DNA of 61,991 bases, counting the filler, from Sanchytrium tribonematis (Eukaryota): NCBI GenBank assembly GCA_018985235.1. It is 10 parts of 10 records of this genome, joined end to end, with 100 filler letters (N's around TTAATTAATTAA, not from the genome) between each part and the next. Parts side by side here need not be neighbours in the genome. Positions count along the whole stretch, not along the records: positions 55,924 to 61,991 come from JADGIG010000558.1; 9 more parts are not named here. One strand, 5' to 3'. The notes beneath the pieces were generated by a model. That model was given only the letters and a program-made list of their open reading frames with translations. It did not search any database and was not told the origin of the DNA. Positions 9,726 through 61,991 of this stretch are shown here, in pieces (position 1 is the first letter of the stretch; the number at the start of each line of letters is the position of its first letter). The translations under genes were made by a program, and so were the position numbers.

Positions 9726-9959
9726 TTTTTATAGTTGGGGGCGTCAAACTGTTTATAAAGGGTCAAACTATGATTTGATTGGTTTAAAACTCAAAAAGTA
9801 AGCGTCTTTTTTGATTGGCCACTCGCCATCCAATCATATATCTCTTTTACTTTTCACGTTTTTATCCAATCAGATCAATTTATTAATATTTTTCAAGATA
9901 TACACCAATCATCTGTTGTAAATATGGTTTATAAACAAACACCCCTGCATCATAAACAA
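9726..9959. promoter_or_regulatory. Bidirectional H2A/H2B promoter with five CCAAT boxes and two TATA-like elements
   Basis: TGATTGG at 9776 and 9812; CCAATCA at 9830, 9866 and 9905; TTTATAAA at 9752 and 9928. Confidence 0.8.
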
Positions 9960-10337
9960 ATGGCACCAAAAGCAGAAAAGAAACCAGCAGGAAAGGCACC
10001 AGCAAAGGCAGCAAAGAAAACATCTGATGGACCAACAAAAAGACGTAAGGTTAGAAAAGAAACTTATTCTACTTATATTTACAAGGTGTTAAAACAAGTG
10101 CACCCAGATACTGGTATTTCCAACAAAGCTATGGGTATCATGAACTCATTTGTCGGTGATATCTTTGAAAGAATTGCAAATGAAGCATCAAAATTGGCTG
10201 CTTACAACAAAAAATCCACCATCACATCTAGAGAAGTACAAACATCTGTTCGTTTAATTCTCCCTGGTGAATTGGCTAAACACGCTGTGTCTGAAGGAAC
10301 CAAAGCTGTTACTAAATTTACCTCTTCAAATAAATAA
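9960..10337 (+). CDS. HTB: Histone H2B
   Basis: [53 protein letters not shown]. Confidence 0.98.
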
Positions 10338-24520: not shown

Positions 24521-24956
24521 ATTGACTTTTAAAAATGACTAGAATTCCTTGCGAAAAGACAAATGACTAATGAAACCCAATCTCTTGACATTTTCAATCA
24601 AACATACTGGTGATTGTCTGATGGAATAAATCATTATTCGTGGATCCAATTCTAATAATTTGACCAATAATATTCCCATTATATTTCAATTTTGAGCACA
24701 CCAAACTGATTTCTTTATTTTTGCAAGATTGAAATGTTTTATGGTAATTTATAGTGATAATTGTGCCATGTACATGAAATGGATTGAATTTGACCTTGTT
24801 TAATTGTAAATGATCTATGCAAATTAATTCATTTTCATAAAATAATTCAATTTTTGNNNNNNNNNNNNNNNNNNNNNNNNNNNNNNNNNNNNNNNNNNNN
24901 TTAATTAATTAANNNNNNNNNNNNNNNNNNNNNNNNNNNNNNNNNNNNNNNNNNNN

Positions 24957-27382
24957 ACAACTTTCCAAGGTGTTCGAAATAAAACTACAATTATAATGAT
25001 TGAATTTAAAATTAATTGCAAAATCGCTTTCACGCTAATAGTCAATTGGAACGCCTGTTGACTATGAAAATAAACATTCAAAGTGCTTGTAGTTTGCATT
25101 GTGTGATTATTTGTCGTTGCGGCGAACTGAGAACTAACTATCTGAGAGAATGTCACTTTGGCTGGAAATAAAGGACGTGTATTAACAATTCTTGTGGCAG
25201 AGTCAATCAAAAGTGAAGGACTCAAGAGAGACATCTGTGTGGATACTGATAATGAGGTTAGCAGGTTTACAGTCACTGAAGGTAAAAAAGAATTTGCATT
25301 GGAGTTGTTGGAACTATGATAAGTGGCTGTACCTATTTTCTGATTTGTCGTATGGCTTTCAGACAAAGAATCAACCTGGTTTAAAATTTTACAAACATTA
25401 GAGTAAATGTCATATTTGACATTATTAGTGAGTGTGTTATTGCTAATATCACATAATTTTAATTTAGAGTAATATGTAATTGTGATATCTGTAAGCAGAT
25501 TTGAATTCAGAAATAGAGATTCAATATTTTGATTAGTGACTACAGCAACTCCTTGAATAAAATTGTTGCTTAAATCTAATATGCGCAAAGAGTCTAGTGA
25601 TGACTTGAATGTTAATTGGCCCGCCAAGTTCATGAATGGCCAAGAGATACTCTGAACTTCGTTATATAAACTGCAGCTAATTCCTTTCGCCGCACAACAA
25701 TTAATTTGCAACTGATTAAATATTGAAGGCTGGATAATATTAGCTTGTAGGTTTAGAGCCAAATCAACAATTGTAAAGCAATCTGGTAGAAAGCATCGGT
25801 TATAGGCAGTGTAGTATTGCTGATACATTAATGGGTTACTTCTTAAATTGCAATAATCTAACATATCAGGGCGATTAATAATAACATCCGTAAAGGAATT
25901 ATTTTCTACCCTTAAGTCCTTAATTGAGGTCGTTAAATTCAAAATGCCAGAAAATTGATTGTTGCTTAAGCCAAGTGTATTTAAAGTGACAGGCAACAAG
26001 GTTAAAAAAGGACCGTTAAATAAATTTGACCCCAAATTGAGAAACTCTAAATTTTGTGAAATATTGAGTTTTTTTAAAGTTCCACTTAATTTGTTTCCTT
26101 CAATATTAAATTTAACTAACGAATTAGGCATGTTAATATCAAGAGCACCTTGCAAATTATTATATTGTATCTCCAGAAATCGCAGACCATTAGGCAATGC
26201 TGGTAGAAAGCCATTAAAGTTATTTCCGTCCGCTTTGAAAATTGTTGTATTTTGTGGTACGGCAGGTAAATTTCCACTTAGGAGATTTATACTTACATCA
26301 AAAATTTTGAGTCCCACAGGGAGTAGGTTTGGTAAATTTCCAGTGAGTGTATTCCTTGATATATTTATAGTCAAGAGTCCAGTAGGCCACGCACCAGACA
26401 GAACACCTTTGAGCTGGTTATTCGATAAATCTAAATCCGTTAATCCACTTGGTACGTTAGCAAAATCAAGATTTCCGGTTAGATTCCTGCTAGAGAAGTT
26501 GATTGACGATATTAAATAATTTGCACCACAAATAACACCTGGATCGCTGCAACAATTGATTTGCAAAGAATTGAATACAGATGGCTGAGATTTGTCCATG
26601 TTAAGGCCTTTAGCTAGACTAATGACTTTTTCACAATCTGGAGGTAAGTATGAAATAGGAAGTGTACAAATTGAACCATAGCTAGCGTAGTAGGGCTGAT
26701 ACCATAAAGGATTGGTAATCATCTCACAGTATCCTAAAGCACTGCGGTCTAGTAGTGTAATCTGAGAAAGCAAGTTTTCGTGCGCTAAAAATATTTGGAC
26801 TGGAGAAGGCACTGTAATTTTGCCAGTAAAAAAGTTGGTATGTAGATATATAACAACCAGATTTGTTGGAATATTAAACGTAATTGGACCTGATAGCCGA
26901 TTCTCGCCCAAACTTAAAAGCGTTAGTGAATTTGGTATTATTAGATCGACTTCCCCATGAAATTGATTTCCTCCTAAATTCAAGGAAGTCAAGGTATTTG
27001 GCAGTTTCATACGAACAGTTCCATTAAATATATTGAACTGCATTTCAAATACTTGTATGATGCCTGGAACGACTTTTATATCACCTTCAATATTATTGCC
27101 CCCGAGCAGGACATTTACAATATTTGGAGGTAAATTAGACTCGTTAAATTTTCCATATAGTCCAGTTCCTGACCAGTCAATTTTAATAACTCTAGGGGTG
27201 CTATCACAAGTCACGCCTTTAGCATTGCAGCAGTTTTTATTCAATGAAGTCCAAACTGCTGGTTTTACAGTTGGTACATTCAAGTCTTGTCCCATTGCGA
27301 TAACCGCAGGGCAATCAATAGAGACGGAATACGCGACTTGGAACCAAATCAACAACCTAAAAACAAAAACTCCAATGGTCAT
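24957..27382 (-). CDS. Secreted/membrane LRR protein with three Cys-capped LRR modules and an S/T stalk (3' end cut)
   Basis: Signal peptide; three DC..L..NCC...G(V/I).C caps; LxxLxLxxNxLxG repeats; TM helix near the C-terminus. Confidence 0.92.
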
Positions 27383-27497
27383 GACAGATTTTAAAGTGGC
27401 TTGTAGGTAATCTTACAATCACCGACACGGGATGATATTTCATAATTATTCCAGCAATCAAAAGAGATCAAATTTCTCATAAACAATTTATTTATCG

Positions 27498-48853: not shown

Positions 48854-49652
48854 TTATTGAACAGATAAATAAATAGAATCTTCTTTCGCTTTTCGTTTTG
48901 CTCTAAATTTACTTAAATTGGTTAATAAATATTGAACAATTGCACCAAATATCATTGCAGACAAGACGACTCTTATAATTTTAGTAAATGTGAAATCAAT
49001 GACTGAAAAATGAGCAATTCCATTATATTCCTTGTCTGAGATCGTAGTGCTCTCAATCCCGTATTCAAATGTGGTTAATTTTGATGAAATAGTAGTGATT
49101 TCTGTTGTTTTTGCCTTGAAAATCACTCGAGTTGGAATTACAGTTGGTGATTTGGTGGGTGGAGCATTGACTGTTAATACTTTGTCTATTGTCTCAACTC
49201 GTACAGTGGTTGGTAAATCACTAGAAATGCTGGCAATATCACTACTTTGCAATGTTTCACTGGGAGATGTCGTCTGCAATGCCATTATTTTAGTTTGTCC
49301 CAAATGGTCCATTTTACAAATACCTGCTAAATACAAAACAGTCTCAACTGTAAACACATTATTAGAAATATCACAAAATGTCAAAGATGACTGATTTAAA
49401 CTTATATAAACAAGTGCATTATTCTTCACATTCAATTTAACCACATTATAGATCTCTAATCCATCAAAATAGTTATTAGATAGATCCAATGATTTGATAG
49501 ATATAGTCAAATTGCCATTTAATTGATTATTAGACACATTAAATTCATTTCTCGTAATATTAGCATTTAATTGCATATTGCCATAAATCATGTTATTTTG
49601 AGCATAAAATACTTGTAATTGATCACCAATATATGGTAATGCATCATTGATA
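48854..49652 (-). CDS. LRR surface protein, 3' part (same family as 24957-27382)
   Basis: LDLSNNYF, LTFCDISNN cap, S/T stalk, TM helix, basic tail. Confidence 0.85.
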
Positions 49653-49752
49653 NNNNNNNNNNNNNNNNNNNNNNNNNNNNNNNNNNNNNNNNNNNNTTAA
49701 TTAATTAANNNNNNNNNNNNNNNNNNNNNNNNNNNNNNNNNNNNNNNNNNNN

Positions 49753-55546: not shown

Positions 55547-55823
55547 ATGGTAAATCTGTTTTCTTTAATGGAAGTCGCTCCAAATTGTACCGATGAAGAA
55601 TTATATGAACAATATAAAAAATTGGCTTTACAAAAACACCCAGATAAACATGGAGGTTCTCATCAGGATTTTTGCGATTTGCTTGATGTGTACAATTTTT
55701 TAAAAACAAAGAGAAAAATTTATTCTGACATGGTTTATGGTAATGCAGTCATATATGAGGAGATCAATCTAAAAGATATGGAATTTGATGGTAAAAATTA
55801 CGAGTATGACTGTCGATGTGGAG
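55547..55823 (+). CDS. DPH4: Diphthamide biosynthesis J-domain protein Dph4/Jjj3, 5' part
   Basis: J-domain with HPDK followed by the start of a CSL zinc finger YEEINLKDM...YDCRCG. Confidence 0.85.
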
Positions 55824-56103
55824 NNNNNNNNNNNNNNNNNNNNNNNNNNNNNNNNNNNNNNNNNNNNTTAATTAATTAANNNNNNNNNNNNNNNNNNNNN
55901 NNNNNNNNNNNNNNNNNNNNNNNAACAATGAGTTTTGCTGCAAATATGAGATTGAAATAGATCATGTATTGGGAGATGGGGTCATTTGATATATGACTTG
56001 CTCAATTTATGGAACCAATTAAAAGTGTTGCAATTCATTTGCAATCAATTGGTACTTGGGATTGCGCGTCCATTTATCATTTGAATATCAATCTGTGTCA
56101 TCT

Positions 56104-59100
56104 ATGTCATTTATGAAACCTGGGGTCGAAAATTTCTTTGTAAAATTTTCCGGTTACGCGATTAATTGCCAAACTGCCCAATTCTTAACAGGAATCATAA
56201 CTAAAAAGGTATCCAAGTCTAAAACTGACAAAGATATACATAATTTGCAATCTAATTGCTTAAAAAGCGACACGAAATGTGTTGAAATGACTTCTAAAAA
56301 TTTCAAATTTTTTCCTTTGATCACGCTGTTTTGTTGTATCACTCACATGATTACACAAATTTTTCTCGTGCTACTGAAGCAAACATCGAACGTCTTCGTG
56401 CCATCTTATGTAGAAAACATGATAATTAAACTAAAAAATCAAAAAAAGATTTATTCACTCTGCTGCACTAATTTGCTCGAATTATGCATTAATCTACCTT
56501 GGCTCCTGCTTTTAGTTGTTATAATCAACGAATCGTTGCCAAAATTTGACAGCCGGGTCTACTTTAATGCTAATGAACAGATTCCGAAAATATTTAAAAA
56601 AGTGACTCACTTAAATATTTTTAAAATCCCACATTTAGTCTCAATAAATAGTATTTTGTATTTAAATTCTCCAATACAACTAGTCTTGTTTGCTTCATGG
56701 AATTCCAGCTCCCAAATTAGTGTAATTGTACTATTACACAATAGACAATTTGACGAATACTTTGATCTGATGCTAATCACAATAAACAATACAAATACAC
56801 AGTGTGCAACAATAAAATGTATTTATTCTCTGGCCATTCCACTCGCTATGGCAACATCTTTCGCTGGTATTGGATTAAAACACAAACAAATTTTAGAAAC
56901 AACTTCTAAAATTGCAAAATTTCAACTGGGTAAACTATTATTACTCTCCACCTATCTTGAAAATGAAGGATTTGGTCAAAATATTACTCTCAAGTGTCAA
57001 AATGACTCCAAAATCACTGCTATCTTGAAAGCAGATTTCGTAGTCGCATCATGTGAACACGAACCAGTTACAATAGAAATTCAGTCAAAGAAGAAAGAAA
57101 CAAACACGACCGTGTTTAATCAATGCAGGGAATTTTGTAATTTGAAACCCGACGCGGTGACAAAACACTTTGAAAATGTGCTTTCTAAACATGTTCATTT
57201 GGATCTGGAGGAGATTCTGCAAGCATTCACTGATTTTGTGCAATCCAATAGATCAATTTCTGACGATGTCCCCATTCTTGTCGAATTTAGCCCTTCTGTC
57301 ATGGATTTCCAATTCAAAATAGCCGAAAATTTGAATTTTACATCAAAATTGCCTACTGTCCCTGACCCCAACACTCTACTAGACATGTCCAAAGATAAAT
57401 TACTACAATTACAAGCGCGTTCCCACAACTCAAACACCAAAATTTCTGTCAATTTAATAATTGGCATGCGATCACAAGAAGATGTATGTCGTAGATTTCG
57501 CAATAAGCTATTGGGAAAAGAATTGGTTCAATACGCAACAAACTACACTAGTAATCATCACTGCTATATATTGATAGGAAGCAGCACAAAGATTTCAGAA
57601 CATGAAAAGGAACTGATTCGCGATTTGAATCTAAAAATGGCTACAGTAGATCAAGCACGCTTATTTTTTAATAATATCCTACCAGAAACATACTTCAAAG
57701 ACAAAGAATTGATTTACTTCCAATCCATTAAAAATGAAACAAACAAAACTGGAGCAATTGCCGTTGCAATCCAAAATACTGCTGCCAAAATCAAATTGTA
57801 TTGTTACAGAAACAAGCAAATGGAACTTAACAAGTACTGTCGCGAAAACTCAGGGAAAATTGGCAAATTAATCTCAGAAATAAGAAATGGAACGCACTCC
57901 CCCGGGTACCGCAATTTTACAATTGCGAAATTGCAATTCAATTTGAGCTATCAAACACATGATTTTAGAGTTGAAAAAACCCAGAACATGAAGGAATTCT
58001 GCGACAATCTAACCACAGAATGGTGGACACCATCTGAATTAGCAGGGGCTAAAATAATCTACTTAGCCAAAAATGAGAATGGTAATTGTGATTCTATTCA
58101 GTTTCTGATTGAAGAAGACATGAATGCAAATGATTTATACTCCATCGGGGTGCGATTAATTAGATCATCAATTGATTTTGAGAATGAAGCTCAATTAGCC
58201 ACAAACTCTGACCTTGGACCGAATAAAAGAGCAAAAACAACCGACAAAATGGTCTATAATACTTATTTAGCAAGAATAACAACCGGAATCACTTTTAATA
58301 AAGAATCTTTAATGAGTTTTGAAATTGAAAAAAACCAGCACTTTGACTCCCTCTATTTATATTATGCGACTCAATCTGGCTACTTTTCACAGACTTTATC
58401 CCGCAACACGCAAATAAATCAAGATGTTATCAAACAACATTTACAACAACACCCAGTCAATCAAATAGAATACACAATTTATGGCAAACCACAAATAAGC
58501 AGATTTTATATTCCTTGCTTTGCTACCTTCAATGAACTTAAACACTATTTACACATGACATTTGGTATCACAAACTTCACACAATACTCTTTGAAGCACA
58601 GACACGTGCATTTTGAGGTTGCAAATATAAGTCATCCAATTCCCACAAACTCATATAAATTACAACTAAAAGGGCTATTAGGTGGTACCAATAAACGAGA
58701 TTTGATACTTTCGGACTCAGTAGACACAGATGAAGAGTCGCAAAATGCTCCAAACAACAAGAAAATCAAATTAGATCTGACAGAAATTCCAGGAAATTTA
58801 AAACAATCACAAGAGCTCAAAAGAAAAGCATCATTGAATAAAATAGTTAAAAAACCAAAGCAAAGTGATTTTCTTTCGTCAAACTTTAATTCTATTTTGA
58901 CTGATCCTCCCTCAAATATGGATGATATCACACTTCCAGATGAGCTAGACACTTTAGACAGATACAATGTCTATCTTGAGCATGATCTCTCTATCATTCA
59001 ATACAACTGCAATGGGTTTAAGAAACTTGAAAATAATCAAGAAATCTGCAACATTTTGGAATACAATCCACATCTGATTGCTCTGCAAGAAACACAGACG

Positions 59101-61962
59101 GATAAACCACTTAGTAATCTACCCAACTACAAACAGATTCACTTGCCACATTCTAAAAGGCAGTACAAGCAGCATTTATTCATAAATAATTCAATAAAAA
59201 ATTTCAAACAAATTCATGTTTCTGATAATTGCTATATATATGAAGTAAATAAACAAAAAATAGCATTTATTTATATTCCATATGCTTTCTATCTTGCCAA
59301 GGATTTCGCAGCAATCAAGAGAATTCTGCAACCTGCAATCGACCATAAAGCCATCATTATCGGCGATCTCAATTTCCATTTACTTGCAGTCGATGACCAA
59401 CAGAATGCACTTGACAAAATCCTTGTTCAATATCTTGAAAACAACTGTTTCCAGTTTCATAATAGGCATGAAACATCCATGGTAAAATCTCAAAAAATTC
59501 TTGACCATTGTTGGTCCCACACTTCTCAAATTAGTAAAATCAATAGCCACAATGTATTAAACAGACCAGAAGCATTCACTTCTGATCACTGGCCTTCTTT
59601 AATAAAATTAAAACTGGATACACCAATCATTGATCCTGAAAAAGTGAACTGGAAAAAGCTTAAATTGGCTCATTATCGTAGGAAATACAAAGCAGTGCTC
59701 AATAAATTACTAAATAAGCATCAAATAGATCTCTTGAATAAAACAGATTCAAATTTTATCGACTTGATATTTTCAAATTGCATTTTGACTGCTGGAAGAA
59801 TCACCCTTGGAATTATCCCAAGATTTAATGCTAATGTGAATAGAACTAAAGATATCCAATCAATAAATAAGAAAATTAAAATAAATCAACGTAAATTCAA
59901 ACGAACAAGAAACAAATCAAAGAAAAAGCAGCTTTTGAAACAAATTCAACAAAGTAGGGCATTTTATAATGCAGAGGCTAAAAAACAAGTCATTGAGACT
60001 CAACTTGAAGTTGTAGAGGAACTGTTCAAAGATCCCAATGCAGCATATCACAAATTATGTGAAATAAAAAATAAAATTTCCAAGACAAATCTTTTTTGCG
60101 ATATCCAAGACATGCTTGATTATCAAAAACAACATTTTAATCATCGAACACATGAGTGGATCAAACAAGAACTAACAGAAACTGAGAAATTGAGAACCAA
60201 ATTGGTAATTTCTCAATTATTTACTACAAATAAAATCAAGTCTGAACTCAAATATCTAAACATAAAAAAGGCATCAGGCGGTTTAATACCCACCATTGCC
60301 TACAAATTCTTGCCCAGAAATGGTATCAAAACCATTATTTCACTTTCTTATTTTACAGGTGAAATTCCAAATTCTTGGTCCGAATCAGGAATCGTTGAGA
60401 TTTTTAAGAATAAAGGATCATCTGAAGATCCCAAATACTACAGACCAATTAGTCTGTTGGTTCCACTGCGGAAATTGTACGAAAAGATAATTTATTATCA
60501 CAGACTAAAAAATAAATTGATCCCCTCATATCGCCAACATGGCTTTTGCGCTTCTCGTAGCACCAACACACAACTCCACTATGTCCATAATCTTATAAAT
60601 CAGTTTAAAAAAGAGGGAAATGTGATCATGGGATCACTTGATTTATCCAGTGCTTTTGATGGAATCATTTATGATGATATTTATAGCATTGCTAGTCAAA
60701 ATCTTGAAAAACATGATCTGAATGCACTCAGATCACTTCTAGTAAATCAATCTTTACATTTATTGCGCGATAATAACAAGCAAAATGTAAAAATGAAGAA
60801 AGGGGTGCCCCAAGGTGGCACTCTTTCACCAATGCTCTTTTCTTTTGTCATTGACAAAGTGCTCTCCGAATTGGATTATGATCCAACTAAATTGGCCATC
60901 TGTTTATACGCAGATGACATCTTTTTAATTTCAAATGATCCAAAATACTTTGAAATGATTCTAAATAAACTCACAGATTTATTTCTTACATTCTCGTTTG
61001 AACCCAATCCTGATAAGTATCAGATTTGCTCAAATGAGCCAGTAAATATCAAAATAAATGATCAAATTATAAAACAATCTCCTTGGATTAAATATCTAGG
61101 AGTCCACCTTGACCACACAGGCATTTGTTACGAACAGGAATTGAAATGGAAGAAATCCAAATTAGCATTCCTCTCAAAGAAATTCAAAACAATGATGACA
61201 GAGCAGCAAACTTCCAGTAAGAAATTTGAAAAAGTGGGCCATTTATTTCATGGCAAGAGTCTTTTTGCTAAAGGAGTTATAGAATCTGTACTCAGTTATG
61301 GGTTATCATTGTGGGACAAGTCCTATTTGAGTGAATTAGAATCAATTAGAAGAGTTGCAATAAATGGTTTATTTTCAAACACCCGTCTGATCCACGAATA
61401 TCTTTGCAAATTTAAGAATACTGAAGAACTACACTTAACGTCACGTATTTCAAGTGAGAAACAGCTAATCAATTTCATTGAGCAACTCGAATCAAATTCA
61501 ATAAATACACCACAATCTTATTTGATCACTATTAAACATAATACGTCTTTTTCTGAGGACCTTACTACTAGAATTGAGTTAGAATGTGCAAATAAAGAGG
61601 ATTTGAATGAGAGAATTGATGAAAGATTGGACAGAATGTGGAATGAAAACAGCGCAAAAAGAGCAACACGCTTGCCACTTGACTCCGCGCTAATGGTGAT
61701 GTTGAAGAAGCATAAGTATCATTATAATTACACCCATCACGTATTAAAATTGGGTATAAAACTGATAATGGGCGATTTCCCCTTTAGAAATGGTGCATGC
61801 ACCATGTGCAATCAGCCGTACGACTCGCTATTTCACTTTGAAGGCGAGTGTTTGAACAATTATATGGATTGGAGTGAAGACAGCATCTACGAGGTGCTAA
61901 ATAATGGCAACTGTAGATTGTTTGGAGTGTTCATGGTGAGATGCGTCAGTGAAAACAAGTGA
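56104..61962 (+). mobile_element. Intact single-ORF non-LTR retrotransposon: long N-terminal region, UBL-like module, APE endonuclease, RT, CCHC (frame open from 56056)
   Basis: APE 58987-59616 (QYNCNG, ALQET, GDLN, LDH, SDH); RT (YRPISLL, QHGF, DLSSAFD, GVPQGGTLSP, YADD at 60907, KYLG); C-x2-C-x8-H-x4-C at 61798-61851; no stops in 5.9 kb. Confidence 0.95.
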
Positions 61963-61991
61963 TTTCCCAATAGGAATTGTGGATTGCAAAT

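Follow-up and report, generated by a model that had tools for sequence, protein, structure and literature searches.

The way in which LINEs obtain two proteins from a single RNA is treated as an open question in the accessible text of Odon et al. 2013 (PMC3708506). The question returns at one locus in the window, by which we mean the whole stretch of 61,991 nucleotides from Sanchytrium tribonematis analysed here: a LINE is read there in a single frame, and a predicted ubiquitin-like (UBL) module with a terminal Gly-Gly precedes its endonuclease and reverse transcriptase (APE-RT). Could this module be what separates the two parts of the product? The stop-free frame spans positions 56023–61962 (+) and comprises 1952 codons when counted from the first in-frame ATG at 56104, which agrees with the single polyprotein of about 1950 aa proposed in an earlier note on this DNA. 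The element is made up as follows, with positions counted along the window.

56058–56103 (+): short leader up to the first in-frame ATG, starting at the probable 5' end of the element, where one contig of run X1 diverges (56058)
56104–61962 (+): single ORF of 1952 aa (P0003) with leader, ORF1-like region, UBL-GG, linker, APE, RT and CCHC finger
56104–56880 (+): N-terminal leader of about 260 aa, hydrophobic and acid-poor (few D/E), homologue not found
57007–58155 (+): ORF1-like region, common to the long Sanchytrium element P0079
58459–58686 (+): divergent ubiquitin-like module with a predicted beta-grasp fold (AF2 model and structural matches)
58681–58686 (+): Gly-Gly, aa 860–861, putative cleavage site and sole GG upstream of APE in 8/8 members reaching there
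58687–58995 (+): linker from GG to APE with basic clusters (family range 21–105 aa)
58996–59589 (+): APE-type endonuclease (Pfam PF03372, Exo_endo_phos, E 3.9e-7)
60418–61110 (+): reverse transcriptase (YADD; Pfam PF00078, RVT_1, E 5.4e-28)
61798–61851 (+): C-terminal CCHC-type zinc finger, by its motif C-x2-C-x8-H-x4-C
61909–61991 (no strand assigned): foreign DNA in place of the 3' end of the element, joined via an 8-base shared stretch at 61901–61908

Judged by its sequence, the element is an APE-type non-LTR retrotransposon (LINE), with the endonuclease lying N-terminal to a non-LTR RT and both Pfam families scoring above cut-off. The module lies upstream of APE and RT, as detected by Pfam, and of a CCHC finger further downstream, in the order already given by the earlier note. 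The top PDB sequence matches of the RT were R2 RTs, and a CCHC-type finger was found in all six checked relatives that reach the C-terminus; such a finger is common, not universal, in APE-type LINEs. Dispersal in multiple copies, as expected of a LINE, was evident from variant contigs of run X1 and from a near copy, P0071, at 89%. A fragment of a different non-LTR element is present at 7039–8662 (−), consisting of the C-terminal part of an RT (Pfam E 1e-12) followed by a separate RNase H frame (E 6.5e-9), and shares no similarity with the UBL element at the DNA level.

For the RT, a tree of 58 rows was calculated by a quick method, in which the 13 rows of the family formed one clade with a support of 100 and a stem of 0.87. 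The other 45 rows, LINE RTs without clade labels, served as the outgroup, and hence no named clade (L1, I, Jockey, RTE, Tad1) was assigned. Elements bearing the GG occur in both main branches of the 13-row clade, and the RT path lengths across them amount to 1.4 or more changes per site. The element belongs to a distinct clade of APE-type LINEs with the ORF1-like region and APE-RT in one frame. The APE-RT-CCHC core is like that of the canonical two-ORF APE LINEs (L1, I, Jockey, CR1, Tad1), from which this element differs by the in-frame fusion of its ORF1-like region and by the long separate branch of its RT.

The first part of the frame is open to an extent not expected by chance, with 0 stops between 56023 and 56850 vs. 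19.4 expected and not one stop-free sequence among 20000 shuffles. The Pfam scan returned no credible family for the leader, and it is missing from P0079 as that protein is predicted. The composition of the leader at 56104–56880 (+) resembles untranslated sequence, though it is stop-free, and one genomic copy contains 25 bases in place of 487 leader bases; this part of the protein is possibly disposable. The ORF1-like region that follows (about 400 aa) gave no match in the Pfam and PDB searches. Its residues 302–684 are colinear with P0079 over 402 columns, with 19% identity and a pairwise E of 0.004, and because the ORF1-like region, the module and the start of APE of P0079 likewise lie in one frame, the fusion of the ORF1-like part to APE is not peculiar to the window copy. 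Two impressions gained by eye only concern the window at about 56990–57150 and 57440–57680 (+): Cys and His residues common to it and to P0079 suggest a degenerate RING-like finger, the RING hint in P0079 having a Pfam E of 0.012, which is below cut-off, and a later stretch has a BRCT-like alternation.

Regarding the state of this copy, the word "intact" used in the earlier note proved too strong: the frame is open, yet the copy is not pristine, as three RT codons are missing and the last 17 codons are foreign. In the RT region, at 60337, a sister copy contains 9 extra bases, corresponding to the three codons missing from the window copy. Contigs of run X1 have loose ends at 61901 and 61908, and past 61908 the continuation of the sister contig resembles the C-termini of P0004 and P0068. 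Because the sister contig keeps this relative-like C-terminus, the last 17 codons of the window copy derive from other DNA, and the replacement of the 3' end is either a genomic event or an amplification chimera. No terminal repeats were found in this copy, whose 3' end is replaced at 61908 and for which the window stops at 61991. On the minus strand, 61909–61991 contains an FTDAS motif, which we take to resemble the first RNase H motif, and shows high contig depth; the segment may belong to a further retroelement, joined in tail-to-tail orientation. The contigs of run X1 possibly stem from the source sample and hence are not independent. They represent several variant contigs or copies, some of them frameshifted. 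The GG codons are identical in the sister contig that covers them, and a decayed copy lacks 48 bases of the module. Among the genomic copies, 17 of the 51 classified listed sites (167 reported) carried synonymous substitutions, which are too few, with dead copies mixed in, to show selection.

The element is embedded in compact eukaryotic DNA with fungal-type genes. Just upstream of it, at 55568–55822 (+), lies a gene with DnaJ and CSL zinc finger domains, presumably DPH4-like by its architecture, which is truncated by an assembly gap. The N gaps at 55825–55924 and near 6200–6260 contain a short central TTAATTAA-containing spacer, which is a scaffolding mark and not biology. A divergent gene pair at 9390–10000 is, as we assume, histone H2A/H2B-like, and leucine-rich-repeat proteins with cysteine-capped modules are encoded at 24905–27412 (−) and 48854–49696 (−), apparently belonging to an expanded secreted family.

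Translation confirmed that the module at 58459–58686 (+) consists of exactly 76 codons ending in LLGG. Its likeness to ubiquitin, which had been claimed by eye, was not significant for the single sequence but gained support once relatives were added. Searched singly, the 76-residue segment matched 0 Pfam families at E<=10 and only one, unrelated, PDB entry by phmmer (E 1.7), and the AF2 model produced without an alignment reached a pLDDT of 49.7 and a best Z of 4.6 in the fold search, with no clear match. At E<=10, no ubiquitin family of Pfam was detected for the window or for its seven relatives. Searching the PDB at E<=10 with a profile of three sequences (A2) yielded 20 rows, 16 of which were ubiquitin or ubiquitin-derived and 2 lysin; the two further rows (FERM, VCIP135) are presumably other chains bearing a beta-grasp. 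The best whole-chain E of 0.0038 was aided by repeats, and the per-domain E for ubiquitin was above 1. A profile of five other members (A7) returned 0 ubiquitin entries among 16 PDB rows.

When AF2 was run on the three sequences of A2, it predicted the order strand-strand-helix-strand-strand-strand with a pLDDT of 61 (39–51 for the other models). Among 48,161 solved chains, the best 50 rows listed for this model were all ubiquitin or beta-grasp proteins, judged by the title or the identity of the entry. The best match was the UBL domain of HOIL-1L (Z 7.2, rmsd 2.1 Å, 69 residues aligned), and ubiquitin itself matched with Z 6.5–6.6; none of the listed rows reached Z 8, the caution line of the tool. 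The structural identity to the ubiquitin-fold matches was about 5–18%, and in several rows the GG of the model (residues 80–81) aligned near ubiquitin residues 74–76. Foldseek listed a ubiquitin variant as the best row (E 0.048, prob 0.97) and none at E<=0.001, and the viral structure library gave mainly ubiquitin-family proteins and five listed BVDV polyprotein fragments, again none at E<=0.001. The model agrees with the beta-grasp fold that the earlier note expected, and we assign this fold to the module with moderate confidence. A second, GG-less ubiquitin-like domain further upstream, suspected by eye at aa ~645–755 (window ~58040–58370 (+); residues 49–140 of P0005 and 31–122 of P0202), found no backing in the profile comparison (hhalign probability 0.1–0.2).

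To follow the GG through the family, relatives were collected with an APE-RT query, which returned 65 proteins including two close ones, P0004 (50%) and P0005 (28% over full length), and further ones came from a complete HMMER run over 1.84 billion representatives (best 150 listed). Sequence upstream of APE was available for seven relatives (P0004, P0005, P0074, P0078, P0079, P0123 and P0202), five from Sanchytrium tribonematis and two from environmental ENA contigs. All seven carry a GG upstream of APE, exactly one each, as in the window; over the 2766 upstream residues in total, 2.4 GG would be expected anywhere. When the whole proteins were aligned without a seed, the GG fell into the same two columns for seven of the eight rows; P0074 was misaligned but shares the tail context. 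Alignment A6 brought six GGs together and shifted those of the window and of P0079, both with long linkers, which shows that the placement of the GG depends on the aligner; alignments A8 and A9 likewise misplaced the window module, and all three were set aside.

The tails of the eight members read GLLGG (window), RLLGG, RQLGG, KMLGG, RMRGG, RIRGG, KLRGG and KGCGG (P0074). The pattern [RK]x[LR]GG is present in six of the eight members, i.e. in six of the seven relatives, and is missed by the window and P0074. At the position equivalent to ubiquitin Arg72, 7/8 members have R or K, and the GG is followed by S, T or A in 6/8 and by Pro in none. The expectation of the earlier note that LxGG is kept where its flanks diverge was borne out for the GG itself, which stands in every relative, with the module body and most flanks diverging: compared with that of the window, the bodies are 15–26% identical, mostly without pairwise significance (z −0.7 to 3.4), vs. 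19–49% identity for the first 150 aa of APE as a comparison region. Two module profiles without a common sequence matched each other at 94.9% probability; with a different split, by sub-clade, the match covered the last 23 columns only (4.3%). These counts come from eight related elements of few organisms and are not independent.

As a control, we used 75 proteins or frames outside the family with an APE match, 15 of which have at least 40 aa upstream. Among these 15 LINEs, one has a GG within 120 aa and none the [RK]x[LR]GG motif. Outside the family, 2808 proteins and frames gave no convincing match to the module HMM (best E 0.011), and the 2A core NPGP (DxExNPGP) is absent upstream of APE in all eight members. 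All 80 loci obtained from the metagenome scan were distant LINEs (23–35% identity), and none had the module; the viral contigs and phages searched gave no match, and searches with P0078 and A10 added no further family members.

The single frame, the order of the domains, the GG kept across the clade and, in six of the eight members, the [RK]x[LR]GG-type tails were observed directly. A protease site would be expected to look much like what is seen here, with a terminal GG that does not vary, a predicted beta-grasp body that drifts and a position between the ORF1-like and ORF2-like parts, and we consider it somewhat probable that the conserved GG of the predicted ubiquitin-fold module is cut by a host deubiquitinase (DUB), which would release APE-RT from the ORF1-like part. 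An ancestor of the clade would have captured a gene of the ubiquitin family, fusing ORF1 to ORF2 through it; the body of the module would have drifted, and selection would have maintained its tail for use as a protease site. A host enzyme of the USP/UCH type would then cut after the GG, as with the ubiquitin inserts of pestiviruses and Fubi-eS30, and a single start codon would give rise to separate ORF1-like(-UBL) and APE-RT-CCHC proteins in a ratio of about 1:1. The separation would be the job done by 2A peptides or stop-restart translation in other LINEs. In the accessible part of O'Dea et al., an RXRGG tail is assigned to ubiquitin and an RXLGG tail to Fubi (PMC10611586). Because the tails observed here are like those of ubiquitin and Fubi, which are USP substrates, ULP/SENP-type enzymes are less likely, and the tail pattern points to enzymes of the USP/UCH type. 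According to the accessible passages of the respective reports, processing of FUBI-eS30 requires the diglycine and USP36 (PMC8354635), and pestivirus Ubi-NS3 is cleaved by cellular UCHs (PMC8310069). Our main doubt on cleavage by host DUBs concerns the recognition of the diverged body: most DUBs do not accept Fubi, whose identity to ubiquitin is 36%, as far as the available text states (PMC10611586), and with the much greater divergence of the module its body may go unrecognised by host enzymes.

A conserved tail on a body that is not conserved would also suit an enzyme reading the tail only, either a protease from the ORF1-like region of the element itself, where some 400 aa of conserved sequence have no assigned function, or a non-DUB host protease recognising the short xLGG/xRGG end. 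However, Pfam found no protease family in any member scanned, three members begin only 170–200 aa before the module, and the tail alternates between two known DUB-substrate patterns, so that we regard this explanation as quite improbable. It is also unlikely, if not negligibly so, that the module stays attached as an integral UBL domain, binding the proteasome, p97 or other host factors or acting as a decoy for DUBs or E1, with the GG kept as a flexible hinge or for a role in binding. Many of the top fold matches are indeed UBL domains that are not cleaved (HOIL-1L, TBCE, NUB1, Rad23), and the extreme divergence may defeat recognition by DUBs. However, a binding surface should keep the body conserved, whereas the body is near background and the GG is invariant; moreover, integral UBLs usually are without a GG.

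Cleavage after the GG would leave a free beta-grasp-GG end on the ORF1-like protein, and together with the R or K at the Arg72-equivalent position of nearly all members this raises the idea that the protein becomes attached to proteins of the host or of the element as a ubiquitin-type modifier. We give this idea very little weight, as E1, E2 or E3 enzymes were not found in the element and the body is probably too divergent for the expected recognition by E1. Equally little speaks for the view that the module resembles ubiquitin by chance or is left over, without a function, from an old ubiquitin capture. The lack of a significant database match for the single sequence would fit such a reading, but the GG in 8/8 members over the RT distances given above and the open frame across the module in all members argue against it, and judging from the conservation of the GG we regard it as largely ruled out. 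Cleavage by a host DUB is the reading we prefer.

Ubiquitin-like domains in some non-LTR ORFs are reportedly listed in reviews. A similar arrangement is found in cytopathogenic pestiviruses (BVDV Osloss, CP Rit), in which, by the accessible parts of the reports, a ubiquitin-fold unit lies within a polyprotein and host C-terminal hydrolases free the downstream enzyme (PMC8310069, PMC13517609). These inserts belong to an RNA virus, were copied from host ubiquitin recently and match it almost exactly, whereas the LINE module appears ancient, has the low structural identity described above and is fixed across a retrotransposon clade, with its cleavage being putative. The 2A-bearing APE LINEs (L1Tc, Ingi and members of CR1/L2/Crack) also have APE-RT in one ORF with a separating signal upstream of APE, as described in the available text of Odon et al. 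2013 (PMC3708506), in which the word "ubiquitin" occurs 0 times. They use ribosome skipping, whereas in the family described here NPGP is absent and the separator would be a predicted folded UBL-GG that requires a protease. Fusions such as FUBI-eS30 and the ubiquitin-ribosomal proteins share the UBL with an RXLGG or RXRGG tail before a cargo, from which it is removed by USPs (PMC8354635, PMC10611586, both in part); these are host genes with an N-terminal UBL, unlike the internal and far more divergent UBL of a mobile element. The giant Gypsy elements Burro/GYPSM1 of planarians likewise encode a retrotransposon polyprotein with a ubiquitin/SUMO-like domain, but these are LTR elements with their own protease, the domain has another position and the superfamily is different, and the accessible text gives no role in GG cleavage (PMC6431247). 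In the openly accessible literature that was searched, seen in part, no description of a UBL-GG before the APE of a LINE was found, and the accessible main text of the genome paper on the sanchytrid phylum contains "transpos" 0 times (PMC8371127).

The chances appear about even for the wider proposal that a deep-branching LINE clade of sanchytrid fungi and environmental hosts swapped the two-ORF design for a polyprotein processed by host deubiquitinases via a domesticated, highly diverged UBL, which would add a further route, the third besides stop-restart translation and 2A peptides, by which LINEs obtain ORF1 and ORF2 proteins, and would place transposition under the control of the host ubiquitin system. 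The family also defines an RT clade, not placed among other LINEs, in a little-known group of fungi. If true, the question of how two proteins are made from one RNA would have a new answer in the conserved UBL-GG separator; the ratio of ORF1 to ORF2 would be fixed at about 1:1, host DUBs could gate transposition, and the module would show how far the ubiquitin fold can drift and still be compatible with a role as a protease substrate.
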